This document shows, in pieces, positions 20,300-31,447 of a stretch of DNA of 64,000 nucleotides. Each line of letters begins with the position of its first letter. Within the stretch, counting starts at the first letter, position 1. Origin of the DNA: Gemmatimonadaceae bacterium (GTDB lineage Bacteria; Gemmatimonadota; Gemmatimonadetes; Gemmatimonadales; Gemmatimonadaceae); contig JBBDYC010000008.1 in assembly GCA_040901985.1 (NCBI GenBank), forward strand, positions 80,490-144,489, given 5' to 3'. Made by a program: the position numbers and the translations under genes. Under the pieces are notes generated by a model. It searched no databases, was not told the origin of the DNA, and saw nothing but the letters and a program-made list of their open reading frames with translations.

Positions 20300-21391
20300 A
20301 TGAGGTTCGAACTCGGACTCTACTCGTTCGTCGAGAACACCGCCGGCGCCGACGGGCGCACGCTGCCGCCCCGCGAGCGGATCGCGCATCTCCTGGAGGA
20401 GGTCGAGCTCGCCGACCAGGTCGGCCTTGAGGTCTTCGGCATCGGCGAGCACCATCGCCCGGACTATCTCGTCTCGACGCCGGCCGTGGTCCTCGCCGCC
20501 GCGGCGATGCGGTCCAGCCGCATCCGGCTGACCAGCGCGGTCTCGGTCATCAGTTCCGACGACCCGGTGCGTGTGTTCCAGGAGTTCGCCACGCTCGACC
20601 TCCTGTCGAACGGCCGCGCCGAGATCATGGCAGGACGCGGGTCGTTCATCGAGTCGTTCCCGCTCTTCGGGTACGACCTCAAGGACTACGATTCGCTCTT
20701 CAGTGAGAAGCTCGAGCTGCTGCTGAGGATCCGCCGCGACGACCGCGTGATCTGGACGGGCCGGCACCGCGCCGCGCTTGACGACCAGCCGATCTATCCG
20801 CGTCCGGTGCAGGCACCAATCCCGGTGTGGGTGGCAGTGGGGGGCACGCCGGAGTCGGTGGTGCGCGCGGCGTCGCTCGGGCTGCCGATGGCGTTGGCAA
20901 TCATCGGCGGCTCGCCGGAGCGCTTTGTGCCATTCGTGGACCTCTATCGCGAGGCGTGGGCCAAGGCGGGCCACAAGGCGGAGGATCTTCAGGTGAGCAT
21001 CAACTCGCACGGCTTCCTTGCCGACTCGTCGGGCGCGGCGGCCGAGGCAGCGTGGCCGCCCTACCTGGACGTGATGGGACGGATTGGCCGTGAGCGCGGG
21101 TGGCCGCCCCCGACGCGCCGCCAGTTCGACGCCGAGCGGTCGCCCAAGGGCGCACTGTTCATCGGCGACCCGCCGGAGGTCATTGACAAGATCCTCTGGG
21201 AGCACGAGCTCTTCGGCCACACGCGCCACCTCATCCAATTCAGCGTCGGCACGATGCCGCACTCGCAGATGCTGCGCGCGATCGAGCTCTATGGCACAGT
21301 CGTCGCGCCGGCGGTGCGGAAGGCGCTGGGCGTGACCGCACCGCCGGCCAGTGCCACGGTCAGTGGCGCCCGAGCCGCACGCCCAGATTGA
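20300..21391 (+). CDS. LLM class flavin-dependent oxidoreductase
   Basis: [41 protein letters not shown]. Confidence 0.92.
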
Positions 21392-24260
21392 CCACGCGGC
21401 CGTCGAGCGGACCCCAGACATCGGTCGTCCAGCGCCCGCCGACGCCACGCGCCGGCAGCAACAGCGGCGATTCCTTCGTCTGGCGGAAATCGAGCAGGTT
21501 CTCGCCGTTCACGAAGAGGCGCACGGAGCCAATCCGCCGCTCGACCATCAGGCCGAGGTGGACGTACGGCACGCTCTCCGTGCGGTACGGGTCGTCGCCG
21601 AGCGACTGCACGCCGGTGCGGTAGACCTCGACCGCGATCCGCCCCAGTCCCTCGGCTTCCCACGCGCCGACGAATCCGACGCTGTGCTCCGGCGTGAGCG
21701 GGACCTCGCGGCGCGCGCCGGTGGCGGGGTCCGCCTCGGTGGCGCGCAGCCAGGTGTATGAGGCGCTCAGGTGGAATGGTGCCGGCCGAGCGCGCACCAT
21801 CAGCTCGGCGCCGTGCGTGCGCGTCGGCGCATCCACGTTGATGAGTTCGACGGCGCCCGGGACGCCCGCGACCTCGCGGTAGCCGATCGGGTCCCGGATT
21901 TCCGACGCGAAGAGAGACGCGTAGAGCTCGATTGCCGCGAAGGCGCCGCCGAGATCCACCGAGCCGCTCCGCGCGCGCTCGACCCGCAGGCCGTCCAGTG
22001 GCTCGAGGGGCGTGAGGCCGACCACCTCAACCTCCTCGGTGAATGGCGTCGGCCCGAAGAATCCCGTCCCGCCGGAGGCGCGCAGCGACCAGGTTGGCGT
22101 GAGCCGCCAGAGGGCCGAGAGCCGCGGCGACCATTGCGCACCGTACTCGCTGTGCACATCCACGCGCGCGCTCGCCGAGAGCGCCAGCCGCGCGCCGACG
22201 TCCACAGTGTGTTGCGCGAAGAGCCCGGGAGTGCTGTGGACGAAGTCGAACTGGCCCAGGTCGTCGGCGCGGAATCGCTCCTGCTGCAGCGCGGCGCCGA
22301 GTACCCAGACGCCTCCCGCGCCGACGCCCGTCACCGCCGCCTCGCCGAACCAGGTGAAGTGCAGGTCGCGCTCCTGTACCGCGCCGAAGGTGTGCCGGTG
22401 ATCCTGCGCCGACGCGGACGCGCGCACGGTGACGACATTCGAGGTTGTCAGCCAGCGCACGACCCCGCCGGCGTCAAATCGTCCGGTCCGCAATCGCTCG
22501 GGATGCGAGCTGCCGTCGGCCACGGAGTCGCCGGGCACGGTGCCCCCGGCGCGCTCTTCGAGCGTGGTACCGAGCGTGAACATCGCCGAGTGGCCGGCCG
22601 GACTCCGCCAGTGCACGCGCGGACGAAGCACCACGCGCTCGTAGCGCGCAACGTCGGTCCAGCCGTCGTGGTCGCGATCCACACGCCCTTGGGAATGGAC
22701 GCCGGTGAGGAGCGTGTACCCCCAGCGCTCATTGACCGCATCCGACGCAAAGGCCACGGCGTCCCTGCCGTCGAGGCTGGTGCCGTTGAGGAGAAGCTCT
22801 CGTACCGGTTCGCCCTCGGGCGTACGCGAGACGAGGTTGATCACCCCGCCGAGCGCCGACCCGCCGTAGAGCGCCGAGGAGACGCCCTTGATCACCTCGA
22901 CCGCGCCAAGGTCCATCGGCGGGATCTGCAGCAGGCCGAGGCCGCCGGTCTGCGCGCCGTACAACGGGAGCCCGTCCACGAGCATCTGCGTGTAGCGGCC
23001 GCGCAGCCCCTGGATGCGGACGTTCGCGCCGCCGAGTCCGGGCGCGGTCGTCTGCACCCGTAGCCCCGGGGTCTCGTTCAGCATCATCGTGATGTCGCCC
23101 GGCGTCATCAGGAGCTTCTCCTCGACCTCCTCGCCGTCGAGGCGATCCACGCGCAGCGGCTCATCCTCGATGCGGCGCGTGCTGCGGGTGGCGCTGATGA
23201 CGACGGTCCGCGTCGTGACCGGCGCGCGCACGGTGTCGGGCGCGGGTGGCTTGGTCGGCGTTGGCGGGGTCTCCTGGGCGCCAAGCGCATCGGTGAGCCC
23301 GGCAATCGTCGCCAGCACCACGACCGACCGCGCAAGGTTCGAGAGCACCACCTCGGCGTTGCGGCGGAGCCCGTCACGCCGGGCCCGCTTGAGCGCGCTG
23401 TTCCGGAATGCGGCGCTGAACCCCGGCTGGTCGAGCGAAAGAATCTCCTCGGCGAGCGTCCGAGCGTCCTTCGTGGCAATCATCGGGCGCGGGAGGAACG
23501 CGGCGTCCCTGGGCGCAGTCGCAAACTTCACGTTCCACGGACAGACGTCCTGGCAGATGTCGCAGCCGAAGAGATGCTCGCCCACGTCAGCGCGCCGTCC
23601 GGCCGGGATCTCCCCGCGGAGTTCAATCGTGAGGTAGGAGATGCACCGTCGCGCGTCCATCACGCCCGGCTCGATGAAAGCGGCGGTGGGGCAGGCGTCG
23701 AGGCAGCGGGTGCAGCTGCCGCAGTGCTCGGTGTCAAAGGGCGCGTCGGGGGCAAGCTCGAGATCCACGAAGAGCGCGCCGATGAAGAAGAACGATCCGC
23801 GCTCCGGATGGATGAGCATCGTGTTCTTGCCGAACCAGCCGAGTCCGGCCTGGCGGGCGAGGTCGCGCTCGAGGATCGGGCCGGTGTCCACGTAAGCGCG
23901 CCCGCGCACGTTCTCGCCGCGCTCGGCGCGCATCCAGTCGAGGAGCGTGTCGAGTCGGTCCCAGATCAGCCGATGGTAGTCGTCGCCGCGGGCGTACTTG
24001 GCGATCGGGCCGTCCGGCTGGCGACCGCCGTAGTCGAGCGCGACGACGATGGCCGAGCGCATCCCGGGCTCGGGGAAGGTGGTGTCGCTGCGGAGCTCGG
24101 CGCCGCGCTCGAGATAGCCCATCGTCCCGTGGTGCCCCTCGGCGATCCACCGAGTGAACGCCTCGTGCGTGCCGACCGGCCCGAGTCGCGCGATGCCGGC
24201 GAGGTCGAAGCCGAGTCCGAGCGCCTGTGCCTTGAGGCGGGCCTCGAACGTGGCGCTCAC
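21360..24260 (-). CDS. queG: Epoxyqueuosine reductase QueG (24260-~23340) in frame with a TonB-dependent receptor (~23348-21360)
   Basis: QueG motifs [38 protein letters not shown] and [12 protein letters not shown]. No stop follows; then a signal-like segment, plug motifs ([38 protein letters not shown]) and a beta-barrel ending NLGVRL. Confidence 0.85.
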
Positions 24261-24499
24261 CCGATGCGCGCCGCCCAGCGCGCGTAACGGACCACGTCCT
24301 CCGGCGGCGGCAGGGCGTCGTGGTCCCCGTACGCCGTGTACATCCGCCACCGCACATAGTCGCGCGACGGGAGCGGGAGGAATGGGAAGCGCGCATACCA
24401 GCGATTCCGCCGGAAGCGCCACGCCACGACGAGCAACGCCCGCGCGAGGGCGGGGTTGATCAGCGCGCGCGGAATGAGCCTGAGGATGAGCGAGAGCAT
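24257..24499 (-). CDS. Small hypothetical protein
   Basis: PFLPLPSRDYVRWRMYTAYG; stop overlaps the queG GTG start. Confidence 0.65.
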   Translation of the reverse strand: MLSLILRLIPRALINPALARALLVVAWRFRRNRWYARFPFLPLPSRDYVRWRMYTAYGDHDALPPPEDVVRYARWAARIG

Positions 24500-24533
24500 C
24501 GGTTGGCGGTGAATATACGTATCTTCCCGTCCC

Positions 24534-25850
24534 ATGTGGCTCTACCGGGCGATGCCGATCCTCTCCGAGATCGCGGTGCGCGCGTACTACCGCGTGACCG
24601 TGGCCGGCGCGCGCGTCCCGGCGCACGGGCCGGTGCTGATCGTCGCCAACCACAACAACTCGCTGGTGGACCCGGCGCTCGTCGCCGCAACCGCGGGGCG
24701 CGACGTGCGCTTTCTCGCCAAGGCACCGCTCTTCACGCACCCGCTGATCGGCTGGGTGGTCCGGGGCGTGGGGTCGGTGCCGGTCTATCGACAGATTGAC
24801 GACCCCACGAAGGTTGCCCAAAATCTCGACTCGTTCCGGGACGTCCACCAGGTGCTCGCGGCGGGCGACGTCGTCGGGATCTTCCCCGAGGGGATCAGTC
24901 ATTCGGCGTCGCGGCTGGCACCGCTCAAGACGGGTGCGGCGCGCATCGCGATCGGCGCCGCGGCGAAGCTCGGTCGCGACTTCCCGGTGATCGCGGTCGG
25001 CCTCGTCTTTCGCGACCGCGACCTGTTCCGCTCTGAGGCGCACGTTATCATCGGCGACGCCTTCCCGTGGCACGACCTCGTCGGCGACCTGACCAATCGC
25101 AACGCGGTGCGCGAGCTGACCGAGCGGATCGAGCGTTCGATGCGGCGCGTCTCGGTGAACCTCGAGCAATGGGAGGACGAGCCGCTCGTCCGCACCGCCG
25201 AGGAAGTCTGGCGCGCCGAGTTCGGAGCGGCGGCGGACGCCTCGCCGGCGGCGGAGGTGGACCGGCTGCGGATCACCGCCGACGCGCTCCAGGCGTTGCG
25301 GGAGGGCGGGGCGGAGTCGTGGCGCGAGACGGCAGTCGAACTGCGCGGACACGGCCGCGCACTCCGCGCACTGGGACTCACACCGGCCTCGCTGATCGAG
25401 GATGTCACGGTTGGTGATGCGATCCGCTGGGGTGCGGCGCGGCTTCCACTCCTCCTGGTCCTGCCGGTCTCGGCGCTCGGTGGCATCTTCTTTTGGGTGC
25501 CGAAGGAAGTGACGGCACGGGCCGCGGCGCGGATTGCCGCCAAGGAGGGACCCGACGCGTTGGTCACGCATCGGGTCCTCACCGGAGCGATCGTCTTTCC
25601 CCTCTGGTTCGTCCTGACAAGCATCCCGGTCGCTTGGTGGCGCGGGTGGATGCTGGGCGCGGCGTTCCTCCTCGTCCAGCCGCTCTGGGCCTTTGCCGCG
25701 CTCGCCGTGGGCGAGCGCCGGCAGCGGATCTGGCTCGCCGTGCGCCGCTACTTCCTGCGGCATCGGGTCCGGCAGCGGATCGTCCAGTTGCGCGAGCGGC
25801 AACGCGCCCTCGCCGAGCGGCTCCGTGCGCTCCTCGCCGCGGCAGGGTAA
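24534..25850 (+). CDS. Lysophospholipid/glycerol-phosphate acyltransferase family protein with C-terminal TMs
   Basis: ANHNNSLVD, FLAK, FPEG and KTGAAR. Confidence 0.88.
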   Translation: MWLYRAMPILSEIAVRAYYRVTVAGARVPAHGPVLIVANHNNSLVDPALVAATAGRDVRFLAKAPLFTHPLIGWVVRGVGSVPVYRQIDDPTKVAQNLDSFRDVHQVLAAGDVVGIFPEGISHSASRLAPLKTGAARIAIGAAAKLGRDFPVIAVGLVFRDRDLFRSEAHVIIGDAFPWHDLVGDLTNRNAVRELTERIERSMRRVSVNLEQWEDEPLVRTAEEVWRAEFGAAADASPAAEVDRLRITADALQALREGGAESWRETAVELRGHGRALRALGLTPASLIEDVTVGDAIRWGAARLPLLLVLPVSALGGIFFWVPKEVTARAAARIAAKEGPDALVTHRVLTGAIVFPLWFVLTSIPVAWWRGWMLGAAFLLVQPLWAFAALAVGERRQRIWLAVRRYFLRHRVRQRIVQLRERQRALAERLRALLAAAG

Positions 25851-28099: not shown

Positions 28100-29509
28100 T
28101 TATCGAGAGGGAAACTTCCGGCTCCAGGCGTCGAACTCGCTTGGGAGCAAGCCGTAGCGTGTAGCTGATGCGTCGTTGAGGTTCCGGAGCGTCGTTGCCG
28201 TGAGTTCGGCAAATACAGGAACGTCTGGTTCGTCAATGCCGTGCTCCCGCGCCCAAGACTCAACATTGACCGCGGTCGGTGCTAGGCTCTTGCGCACGGT
28301 GTCCGCGATGGCGTGGCGCATCTCGGCGCGATAGCGGAGCTGCAGCGGGTGCGGCGGTGTTGCGGCCTCGCGCGCCACGCTGTAGAGCTGTGCGGAACGC
28401 TCGTACGCGTAGATGTACAGGTCCCGCATCGGCTCGACCCGCGACAGCTCGTAGACCGCGAGTGTGGCGTGAACGTATTCGTCCTCGGCGACGTCAACGA
28501 ACGTGAGAGGGCAGAGATTGGCGTCAATGAGCGGAATGTTCGCGGTCAGGCGAGCGGTACGCTTGTTCACGTCCGCGAAGGGCTGGAGGTAGGGCAGGTG
28601 GACAAGCAGGAAGAATGAGCGCTCGAACGGGTCGGCAATCGCGTTGGCGACGTTGACGATGCGCTCGAAGCACTCGGCAATGAGATGCGGATCCTCGGTG
28701 GGGACGTACGTCGTGCCGGTGATGCTCACCGGACGCTGGCGCAATCGCCCTTCGTCGCGTGCGTCTGCGAGCAGCCCTTCAGAAAGGGCTCCGTGCAGCG
28801 AGCGAATTGTGTGTGCGGTGATTCCCGCTTCCGCCCGCCCGTCCACGAGGTATTCGATTGCAGCCTTGTGGTTGAGGATCATCTGTGCCTCAGTCGCGTC
28901 CTTGCCTTCCGCACGTTGGCCGAACTCAATGAGCTTCTGCGTGTCGATGCGCGAGTAGGTATTCCCCTCGAGGCGGCTTGAGGCCCAGGACAGGTCAATG
29001 AGCAAGCGCGATAGGATTTCACGGGCAAAGGTCCCGGCCGGCCGCTCTTCCGGAGTCCGACCGAGTTGCAGTAGATGCGCGCGCGCGCTCCGGGGGAGGT
29101 ACGCGGATCCTTCCACGTTTGGAGCATAGTTCTCGAGCCACGCGCGGTTATATCCAACGTATTTGCGAACGCCGCGCGGTTGCCGGATCCGGGCGATTGC
29201 CTCCGCTCCCTCTTGGCTCAGCCAGTGCGGGGTTTTTGGATCCGGTTTAGGGGTCGGCCCTGACTCGCTTGGACGCGGGAGATCGGGACCCGGCAGATAT
29301 TTCGTGCCGCGTCCTCGACCTTCGGTGAGCACGCTGGTGGGCGGTGCTTTCTTCAGTCGGTAGTTCACCGCGTACGGTTCGAGCGCGATGCCGTGCGAGG
29401 TTCTGAGTCGATCGGCGAGTTCCCCTGCCGAGAGTCCAGCGGGGTGCTGTGCAATGATGCCAAGAAGAAAGTCGAGCTCTTGGCGGATGTTCTTTCTTGT
29501 CCCGGTCAC
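28100..29509 (-). CDS. Fic family protein with N-terminal HTH, variant motif YLQPFADVNKRTAR
   Basis: SSRLEGNT, MILNHKAA, Fic loop PFxDxNxRxxR; visibly lower GC than its neighbours. Confidence 0.88.
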   Translation of the reverse strand: MTGTRKNIRQELDFLLGIIAQHPAGLSAGELADRLRTSHGIALEPYAVNYRLKKAPPTSVLTEGRGRGTKYLPGPDLPRPSESGPTPKPDPKTPHWLSQEGAEAIARIRQPRGVRKYVGYNRAWLENYAPNVEGSAYLPRSARAHLLQLGRTPEERPAGTFAREILSRLLIDLSWASSRLEGNTYSRIDTQKLIEFGQRAEGKDATEAQMILNHKAAIEYLVDGRAEAGITAHTIRSLHGALSEGLLADARDEGRLRQRPVSITGTTYVPTEDPHLIAECFERIVNVANAIADPFERSFFLLVHLPYLQPFADVNKRTARLTANIPLIDANLCPLTFVDVAEDEYVHATLAVYELSRVEPMRDLYIYAYERSAQLYSVAREAATPPHPLQLRYRAEMRHAIADTVRKSLAPTAVNVESWAREHGIDEPDVPVFAELTATTLRNLNDASATRYGLLPSEFDAWSRKFPSR

Positions 29510-29525
29510 ATAAACTCCGACAAAG

Positions 29526-29573
29526 TTATCGATATTTACCGATATTTTGTCGATATGTCAAGATTATCGATAA
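29526..29573 (-). promoter_or_regulatory. Putative sigma70 promoter of the fic gene overlapped by four TT(A/G)(T/C)CGATA(T/A) boxes
   Basis: Minus-strand TTGACA at 29561-29556; boxes at 29526, 29536, 29547 and 29564 (the last is the perfect palindrome TTATCGATAA). Confidence 0.55.
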
Positions 29574-29927
29574 ACAATCTGGCCACTGGCTGGCAGAGAA
29601 CCGGGATTGCAGGGTCAAGGTAAGCGGTAGAGAAGAAGCCCTCGGCGCGATGGTATGCGACGACGAGAACCCGATGCCGACGAGGCCAAGCCGACTGGAC
29701 TGACCGGCAATGCGCTCGGCGACCGCAGAGCTAACGGCACACACGCATACCGAGCGCATTGCCCCTATGATCTCAATCGGGCGGTGGACGAAATCGCACG
29801 CGCGTTCCTGGCGGGTAGGATTTCGCACGCTTCCGAGCGGCGGGGTCCACTTCAATACTCCCTGCCGCTTCCAAGGATTTCAGTGCCGAATTGAGGTGGC
29901 CGCTGTGGAAGTCGGTCTGGTCAGCAG

Positions 29928-30086
29928 GTGAGTGCGATGACGGCCACGCTTGATGCGAGTCTCGCCGCGTGGCGGGCGCGCCCGCTCAGCGGCTCGTATC
30001 GTTATCTCCTCTTCGATGCGCGCGTCATCCGCGTCTTCCCGAATGAGGCGAGTCTCGTGCGCCTCACGAGTGCGCTCGCCACGTGG
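29928..30086 (+). mobile_element. IS256-family transposase remnant (internally deleted)
   Basis: LAAWRARPL..YRYLLFDA joined directly to VIRVFPNEASLVRL, motifs normally far apart in IS256 transposases. Confidence 0.6.
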
Positions 30087-30398
30087 GCCGCGAAGAAGCG
30101 ACGCTGGGGTGTGCCGCGGCTCACGAACAAGATGCGCCGGCTCGGGTTTTGCGCGAATCCGAAGCGGATTGCCCGGATGTGTCGCGAGGGGCGGCTGTTG
30201 CTCAAGCGCCGGAAGGGCCGGAAGCGGGTGGCCGTGGTACGCGTGCCGCACCTCGTGCCCACCGGTCCCAATCAGCGCTGGAGCATGGACTTCGTGCACG
30301 TTCGGCTGGCCGATGGACGCCCGTTCCGCGTGCTGACGATGCTCGACGAGGGGACCAGTGAGTCGCCCGCCTTGGACGTTGGCCGCAGTCTCACCGCG
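30087..30398 (+). mobile_element. IS3-family OrfB transposase fragment
   Basis: RWGVPRL...NPKRIAR..REGRL...PNQRWSMDFVH.RLADGRPFRVLT.LDE. Confidence 0.8.
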
Positions 30399-30399
30399 C

Positions 30400-30720
30400 G
30401 CCCAACCGTCCGCGTGGCATGCGACGGCAGGCCGAGCCCGCCACCATCAATGCGCTACCCGCAATCGTCCCGGCGCCGAGGCTGGCGCCCACCGAGGCCA
30501 GCCGCCGGTGGGCGGCGCTCCTGCAACAGGTCTTCGAGGTCGACCCGCTCGCCTGCCCGGCGTGCCACGGCACGATGCGGATTGTCGCGTGCATCACCCA
30601 AGCCTCGGTAATCGACCGGATCCTCACGCACCTTCGCGCCCGCGCCGCGACCGCGGCACACGCCGGCGCGCGGAGTCCCCCCTCGACCCGGGCTCCGACG
30701 GCGCCGGGCGCCCGCCAGCC
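30400..30720 (+). mobile_element. IS91/ISCR-like rolling-circle transposase C-terminal fragment
   Basis: NRPRGMRR...WAALLQQVFEVDPLACPACHGTMRIVACI...IDRILTHL. Confidence 0.72.
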
Positions 30721-30742: not shown

Positions 30743-31447
30743 CTAGCGTGCCTCGACCCTGAAGGTGAGTGGGAACTCGACGAGTTGGCGGACCGGCTTC
30801 GTGCCGATGCGCGCCGGACGGAACCGCATCCGCGGCAACGCCGAGCGGACCGCCTCGCTGAACGCCGCGTGCGTACTCTCAATGACGACAACCGTCGCGG
30901 GCTCCACGCGACCGTTGGTCCCGACGACGAACCGCACGCGCGCCACGCCTTCGACCCGCTGACGGCGCAACGCGTCCGGGTAGCGCGGGAGCGGTGAGCT
31001 CGGCAGCAGCGCCGCAGGGACGTCCACTTCGCTCGCGCCGAGCGCACCGTCCAGCGGCGTCCCGGCCGGGAAGAACTCGCCGGTGCCTGGCTCGCCGGTC
31101 GGCTCGCCAGCAGAGATCACCGGCGCCGACGTGACGGGCTCTGAGGCCGGCGCCGGGATCGTGGACGGAACCTCGCTCACGACCGGCAGCGTCGGCTGCG
31201 GCGCAGTCGTGGGCTCGACCGTCGGCTGAGTCGGCTTGGGCGCGACCGGCGCCGGGGGCGCTGGACGCGGCTGCGAGAACGGCGCGAGCGGAACCACCCG
31301 CGTCGGCATCGGGTCCGCGATACCCATACGCTCCGCGGTGGCGACGATCGCCAACGTCAGCACGAGTCCGTGCAACGTCAGACTGAGGGCGGTCCCCGGT
31401 GCGCTTCGATCGGGCACGGGCCGCGACGCAATGAGCATCCTGAACAT
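30743..31447 (-). CDS. Energy transducer TonB family protein
   Basis: TM with SxxxH (SLTLH), Pro-rich linker, C-terminal PRYPDAL..EG...FVV..NGRV...FRPA. Confidence 0.9.
   Translation of the reverse strand: MFRMLIASRPVPDRSAPGTALSLTLHGLVLTLAIVATAERMGIADPMPTRVVPLAPFSQPRPAPPAPVAPKPTQPTVEPTTAPQPTLPVVSEVPSTIPAPASEPVTSAPVISAGEPTGEPGTGEFFPAGTPLDGALGASEVDVPAALLPSSPLPRYPDALRRQRVEGVARVRFVVGTNGRVEPATVVVIESTHAAFSEAVRSALPRMRFRPARIGTKPVRQLVEFPLTFRVEAR

Follow-up and report, generated by a model that had tools for sequence, protein, structure and literature searches.

An in-frame fusion of QueG and a TonB-dependent receptor in Gemmatimonadaceae: a conserved and probably signal-peptidase-processed polyprotein

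A stretch of 64,000 nucleotides from a Gemmatimonadaceae bacterium (GenBank assembly GCA_040901985.1, contig JBBDYC010000008.1, positions 80,490 to 144,489), referred to as the window, was analyzed for a gene that joins the tRNA enzyme QueG to a TonB-dependent receptor. On the minus strand a stop-free open reading frame (ORF) extends from 24260 to 21360 of the window, and its translation comprises 966 residues and one terminal stop. The initial annotation had described queG as continuous in frame with a complete TonB-dependent receptor, which was borne out by the 966 codons and by matches to QueG, plug and barrel. The in-frame fusion is real. The genome carrying the window is designated G000; other G-numbers denote genomes of the genus or family, P-numbers protein clusters (90% identity) and L-numbers loci. 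The fused gene consists of the following parts.

21360..24260, minus strand: single ORF of 966 amino acids, QueG / internal signal peptide / TonB-dependent receptor; fused in 11 clusters
23334..24260, minus strand: QueG, residues 1-309 (TIGR00276, PDB 5d08, predicted model)
23277..23333, minus strand: putative signal-peptide h- and c-region without Met, residues 310-328, predicted cut after Ala328 (own profile)
23274..23276, minus strand: Gln329, predicted receptor N-terminus after the cut (invariant in 11/11 clusters, flanks poorly conserved)
23211..23273, minus strand: short Pro/Thr-rich linker, residues 330-350 (sequence; mean identity 45%)
23187..23210, minus strand: motif RTVVISAT, residues 351-358, presumably TonB-box-like (sequence, and position directly before the plug)
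22842..23165, minus strand: plug domain, residues 366-473 (PF07715, E 1.8e-18)
21372..22805, minus strand: beta-barrel, residues 486-963, 22 long strands in the model (PF00593, E 2e-24, match 510-922)

The first half scores 295 bits with TIGR00276 (cut-off 200; residues 10-319) and matches the QueG of B. subtilis (PDB 5d08) with an E-value of 4.7e-44. A model of residues 1-328 predicted from 80 sequences has a predicted local distance difference test score (pLDDT) of 96.7 and a template modeling (TM) score of 0.83 to 5d08. All eight Fe-S cysteines for two [4Fe-4S] clusters are present (C180/183/186/190/206/233/236/240), as are the DYH (Y95-H96) and DTG (D125) motifs, and these residues are invariant or nearly so in the 80 sequences. 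A HEAT-like RNA-binding domain of QueG is described in passages of PMC5175355. The full six-helix form of this domain in the B. subtilis enzyme was not found here, as the alignment ends at residue 306 against position 336 of the 437 in the chain. The short form is the norm among unfused QueGs of the genus, which indicates that the fusion is not the cause of the truncation. Residues 289-327 form one continuous helix in the predicted model, so that the last helix of QueG runs straight into the hydrophobic segment. This last helix (residues 290-309) is basic, and the net charge before the hydrophobic segment is +4 to +6 in 11/11 clusters. The gene is the only queG copy of G000, and tgt and queA were also found in the genome.

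The second half contains the plug and the 22-strand barrel of a TonB-dependent receptor. The full-length model was poor (pLDDT 45.9) and only the barrel, with 22 long strands, was read from it; the Atlas model reaches a TM score of 0.97 to TonB-receptor clusters. Judged by these features, both halves look intact.

The region between the two halves was analyzed for properties of a signal peptide. The codons GAG-GTG-GTG at 23354-23346, with which the initial annotation had let a signal-like segment begin, were located as codons 303-305, and the signal-like segment then follows. Across the 11 clusters, the QueG core and the plug both show a mean pairwise identity of 82%, and the last helices of QueG 80%. 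The value falls to 29% in residues 310-328 and to 45% in the linker, whereas Gln329 between them is fully conserved (100%). The segment from the QueG motif to this Gln varies in length from 13 to 39 residues, and all 11 clusters contain a hydrophobic 10-mer (Kyte-Doolittle hydropathy 2.0-3.2), Ala or Ser at position -1 and Gln at +1. A variable sequence with such constant signal anatomy indicates selection on signal properties and not on the sequence. By our own rules and profile, the features recognized by signal peptidase I, namely a basic n-region, a hydrophobic h-region and small residues at -1 and -3, occur in 11/11 clusters; position -3 is occupied by Leu in G000 and in 97 of the 245 profile members. 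The split orthologue of G023 starts at an ATG of its own, and its N-terminal signal has the same kind of end (...PATA, followed by QQAPP). On our signal profile the junction scores 8.1 in G000 and 8.6-16.9 in the ten relatives. Gln at +1 follows N-terminal A-x-A motifs of G000 in 16 of 72 cases compared with 2.5% internally, counted without the bonus for Gln that was used in seeding the profile, and is present in 162 of the 245 members of the self-trained signal set. This enrichment resembles the Q-rule of Bacteroidetes; the passages of PMC5837995 that were consulted do not mention Gemmatimonadota. Two LepB and one RseP are encoded in G000. No slippery heptamer or homopolymer was found at the junction in 3/3 genomes. 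A programmed frameshift that ends QueG was rejected, as the first off-frame stop lies 66-84 codons on or is missing within 300.

The ten other clusters with the fusion (P0002-P0010 and P0014) share 59-72% identity and derive from four source collections; two of them are the proteins of G019 and G063. Comparison of the junction with relatives, as the initial annotation had proposed, thus gave the same in-frame junction in ten other clusters in all. Fusion was observed in three of 55 genus genomes (G000, G019 and G063), and it is on these three genomes with DNA that the codon-level junction test rests. In G023 and G041 the queG and receptor genes are adjacent but have a stop and a separate start, and in G022 the receptor is located ~6 kb downstream of queG. 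The latter, a stand-alone orthologue (G022:C35:41-1927, L034), holds one in-frame TGA. Most unfused genus members have a stop a few codons past the RN motif of QueG, with the receptor separate or not found. Such a stop, which the initial annotation had named as the sign of a sequencing error or private mutation, occurs among the relatives only in these unfused members. No fusion was found outside the genus among 400 family genomes with five candidates scored per genome (the unpublished genome G213 enters only the family- and phylum-search tallies), and queG was next to a receptor homologue in 0 of 80 metagenome loci. Of 364 matches in the phylum, 150 were listed, and these do not enter the counts given here. 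A contig from run X1, possibly the source sample and so not independent, matches the window over 21000-23561 without a single difference or gap.

A receptor tree of 25 rows places all 11 fused proteins in one clade with the split receptors of G023 and G022 (100/99), and a constraint keeping the fused receptors together was rejected by the approximately unbiased test (p-AU 0.0003). In a QueG tree of 38 rows the fused proteins fall into three groups with weak backbone support. The simplest reading of these trees would be one fusion followed by a re-split; several independent fusions are conceivable as well. The fusion probably arose from already adjacent genes that lost the stop, the spacer and the start separating them, and we propose that it persists because the peptidase restores two proteins. 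Insertion of a cassette at queG was rejected as the origin, since G000 and the five relative loci examined each contain a single copy and no displaced queG 3' end. DNA identity to G019 is 0.76-0.88 before codon 250 and drops to 0.53 at codons 251-300 (window 23360-23510), after the CPWNVKF motif; this is possibly just a variable region.

Internal signals were also searched in other long QueG proteins, of which the best 120 of 176 were examined; as the search was centered on the QueG–receptor fusion, the fractions are biased. Fewer than 150 residues follow QueG in 29 of these 120, whereas 91 carry a C-terminal cargo, and in 50 of the 91 a signal is located directly after QueG. A simple rule had flagged 51, from which four were dropped as false (P0031, P0040, P0057, P0064) and to which three missed ones were added (P0015, P0105, P0109). 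Five cargo families comprise several clusters: TonB receptor (10), DUF305 (7), TPR (24) and two unnamed ones (2 and 4), the latter two on a QueG type that is presumably Bacteroidota-like. Cargos found once (esterase, beta-lactamase-like, Omp85 barrel) could be private. The fusions other than those with the receptor are given below, together with those of a second tRNA enzyme, MiaA.

P0011-P0013, P0016-P0019: QueG-signal-DUF305
P0044, P0052; and P0058, P0063, P0065, P0066: QueG-signal-unnamed cargos
P0015, P0039, P0071: QueG-signal-singletons (esterase, beta-lactamase-like, Omp85)
L160, L170, L185, L196; also L164, L194: QueG-signal-TPR, Acidobacteriota
P0126, P0127, P0131-P0134: MiaA-signal-S13, 51-56% identity to P0126

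The TPR cargo was followed in 39 Acidobacteriota loci. In 34 of them queG lies upstream: the two genes are split in 28 and cleanly fused in 4, and another 2 are joined at the junction but have a frame break before it. At least two junction types occur in these QueG-TPR pairs, several with an ATG or GTG in the junction. Of 39 long MiaA proteins, 6 continue via a signal into an S13 (PBP4/DacB) peptidase; this control is small, our profile placed 24 of its proteins in the class with no cargo after the enzyme, and no enrichment is claimed. A scan of the 1954 called genes of G000 revealed a TetR-signal-TolC gene outside the window (G000:C8:8680-10671, L219). Its junction is stop-free in 48 of 55 genus genomes, and the signal ends with Ala-Gln in 30/30 loci read. 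A design specific to QueG was rejected, as MiaA and TetR show the same arrangement. The TatC of G000 is located in a frame of 523 codons, which is too short for a TatC-LptD fusion. Two further genes of G000 were observed in the scan. One (G000:C2:152201-155413, L221) combines an N-terminal part of 170 residues without Pfam match, an internal signal ending with Ala-Gln, and beta-lactamase-like and amidohydrolase domains; the other (G000:C18:12653-14674, L220) encodes an exported protein resembling BatD, whose internal, lipoprotein-like signal (…GVGA before the Cys) precedes a TPR domain. An apparent GT2-signal-DUF3108 fusion (G000:C4:50703-52265, L222) was discounted because its frame crosses a run of N.

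On the basis of these sequence comparisons, we consider it probable that the conserved ORF encodes a polyprotein of two functionally unrelated proteins, which would be processed by signal peptidase. A cut by signal peptidase I after Ala328 appears likely. The polyprotein with an internal signal, as proposed in the initial annotation, fits all of the comparative evidence, whereas the cleavage itself is predicted. QueG would fold in the cytoplasm. Its Arg/Lys-rich last helix would serve as n-region, and the following hydrophobic stretch would engage Sec like an internal signal-anchor. The receptor would then be translocated, cut before Gln329 and assembled by the barrel assembly machinery (BAM). 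QueG would retain a hydrophobic tail of ~19 residues, by which it may be tethered to the inner membrane unless freed by RseP. A linker of ~20 residues is too short to span the periplasm. A working barrel thus needs release; without the cut, the receptor would fail to arrive at the outer membrane. Processing of this kind requires no shared function of QueG and the receptor. That an internal hydrophobic segment can be targeted by SecA is described for RodZ in passages of PMC5674894 and PMC9360617.

Several observations weigh against this interpretation. The junction score of G000 is just below the 10th percentile (8.8) of its N-terminal signals, which have a median of 12.4, and the profile was self-trained on these N-terminal signals with the Gln bonus in seeding. 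A plant-type glutaminyl cyclase (PF05096) was not found in G000; M28-type proteins are possible candidates for this activity. The terminal Phe, the aromatic residue expected at the C-terminus of a BAM substrate, is present in nine of 11 clusters and is missing in G000, which ends with VRLGRH, and in G019. In-frame GTGs occur at the junction in 3/3 genomes with DNA; a Shine-Dalgarno motif is missing from most called genes of G000, and the queG start itself ranks only at the 16th percentile of called starts. At the TetR-TolC junction 28 of 30 loci retain an internal GTG compared with a genome expectation of 0.71, and the best start context has a median of 0.9 compared with -0.9 in random windows.

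The junction GTGs offer a second explanation. Translation of the receptor might begin mostly at an in-frame codon inside the ORF (GTG304/305), which would give it an ordinary N-terminal signal; the cell would then tolerate the long QueG chain as a by-product and trim or degrade it. A start at Val305 would yield a normal signal peptide of 24 residues, and the codon is GTG in 3/3 fused genomes. However, Val305 is also GTG in 20 of 27 unfused queG genes, and the GTGs at codons 304, 305, 314 and 315 rank only at the 5th, 2nd, 11th and 7th percentile of called starts, whereas the starts of the stand-alone receptors reach the 38th (G023), 58th (G022) and 45th (G041). GAGG is positioned at -6 before the junction GTG, a placing shared by 4 of 1325 ATG starts. 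In G019 the ATG of Met290 is at the 36th percentile, but the corresponding codon in G000 is CTC. QueG, of which there is only this copy, would still be born fused, since without a stop in queG a long chain is made from its start whatever the internal start does. We therefore regard an internal start as unlikely, and the overlapping genes that the initial annotation had offered as an alternative gained no support. The case for a second start is stronger in TetR-TolC than in QueG.

The fusion could also couple supply and use, if cobalamin or a precursor of queuosine entered through the receptor to supply QueG, a link on which the initial annotation had speculated. QueG requires cobalamin according to passages of PMC5175355, which fits such a coupling. 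BtuB models and structures rank high among the matches to the receptor, and the trees of both halves broadly match. However, the receptor reaches only 85.8 bits with the BtuB model TIGR01779 (cut-off 599.7), and Cir and BtuB match it equally with 16-17% identity. A better BtuB candidate of G000 (290 bits, also below the cut-off) is located 2.9 kb behind the sole cobalamin riboswitch of the genome on contig C14, whereas the window contains no Rfam match and hence no cobalamin riboswitch. Across 117 loci of receptor homologues, MerR recurs as a neighbor in 15, a cation efflux gene in 11 and ArsR in 4; a heavy-metal P-type ATPase, a metal-sensing repressor and a cupredoxin were found near homologues in 3-4 of the 117. 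Several homologues start with His/acidic stretches. No heavy-metal genes are located beside the fused gene in G000 itself. Moreover, QueG is joined in the same way to unrelated cargo. Coupling of supply and use is thus very improbable. The gene neighborhoods point to a likely heavy-metal role of the receptor, with a heavy metal being a more likely substrate than B12.

Even less probable is that the chain stays uncut, as one inner-membrane-anchored or cytoplasmic protein of which one half does not work. The marginal signal score of G000 and the missing Phe in G000 and G019 would agree with this, as would the patchy distribution of the fusion, which is apparently re-split or lost in close relatives. 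Against it, conservation across the 11 clusters is equal in both halves, no Fe-S cysteine is missing and the plug is intact, and the residues at -1 and +1 are maintained between drifting flanks. A sequencing error or private loss of the stop codon, suggested by the stop a few codons after the RN motif in most genus members, was rejected with a negligible remaining probability, as ten other clusters from four source collections, including G019 and G063, have the same junction, no Met or spacer remnant is present, and the X1 contig shows no variant across it.

The surroundings of the fused gene in the window contain the following feature directly upstream.

24257..24535, minus strand: upstream ORF of 80-92 amino acids, unnamed Gemmatimonadota family; syntenic in 5/5 relatives examined

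The GTG start of queG at 24260 overlaps the TGA of this small ORF (GTGA). An acyltransferase gene (24534-25850, plus strand) diverges from the small ORF with almost no spacer, and the short AT-rich stretch that separates the two is conserved in G019. The 3' end of the receptor overlaps a convergent luciferase-like monooxygenase gene by 32 bases (21360-21391). Region 28100-30611 harbors a presumably Fic-like gene and what we take to be an IS3-like remnant, located before a TonB-like gene (30743-31447). In G019 and G063 the TonB-like gene adjoins the conserved block without these two. A scan for promoters and terminators gave no signal above chance.

In textbook Sec export an N-terminal signal precedes an unfolded cargo, and to our knowledge one or two cases of internal cleavable signals are known in bacteria. 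A 300-residue, cofactor-loaded enzyme ahead of the signal of an outer-membrane barrel would, if true, mean that internal cleavable signals are handled far more widely. Neither a QueG fusion nor a general account of such fusions was found in the open-access literature, supplements aside. A broader proposal, which we consider evenly balanced, is that several phyla routinely process polyproteins of a cytoplasmic enzyme, an internal signal and an exported protein. QueG would be a repeated carrier, its basic last helix providing a ready-made n-region to which unrelated cargo was fused independently many times; signal peptidase I would restore two proteins, and annotation and localization tools would miss the whole class. 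Such polyproteins would explain odd domain combinations in databases without a functional link, and they call for caution in inferring function from 'Rosetta stone' fusions. The fused gene beside its split orthologue provides a simple test system.

Compared with the QueGs of TIGR00276 from B. subtilis (5D08) and S. thermophilus (5D6S), the fused enzyme shares the fold, the eight Fe-S cysteines and the DTG catalytic-loop motif, but ends part-way into the HEAT-like domain and continues into the putative signal peptide. With the stand-alone receptors (G023, G022, G041 and 80 metagenome loci) the fused receptor shares plug, barrel, linker and a signal ending with a small residue and Gln, whereas the stand-alone proteins have their own start and n-region, many with an N-terminal extension or a His/acidic stretch that is missing from the fused clade. 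Inner-membrane proteins of the RodZ type, as described in passages of PMC5674894, resemble the precursor in its predicted topology and in the SecA route for an internal segment. RodZ, however, is uncut, whereas the segment analyzed here ends in a peptidase motif and its cargo must leave the inner membrane. In TetR-TolC the end of the upstream protein is likewise merged with the signal peptide of the downstream one, but in the QueG fusion a housekeeping tRNA enzyme, functionally unrelated to its cargo, lies upstream and recurs with at least five conserved cargo families. The nearest case known to us is FbcH, the cytochrome b-c1 precursor of Bradyrhizobium japonicum, in which one ORF reportedly gives rise to two proteins and the internal signal peptide is cut by processing. 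In both systems a single conserved ORF carries an internal signal that separates two complete proteins, although processing is only predicted here. FbcH is said to join two inner-membrane subunits of one complex, whereas the ORF analyzed here starts with a soluble cobalamin/Fe-S enzyme and ends with an outer-membrane barrel. Unlike in FbcH, there is no sign of a shared complex or pathway, as the B12 context is missing and the cargo is interchangeable across lineages.

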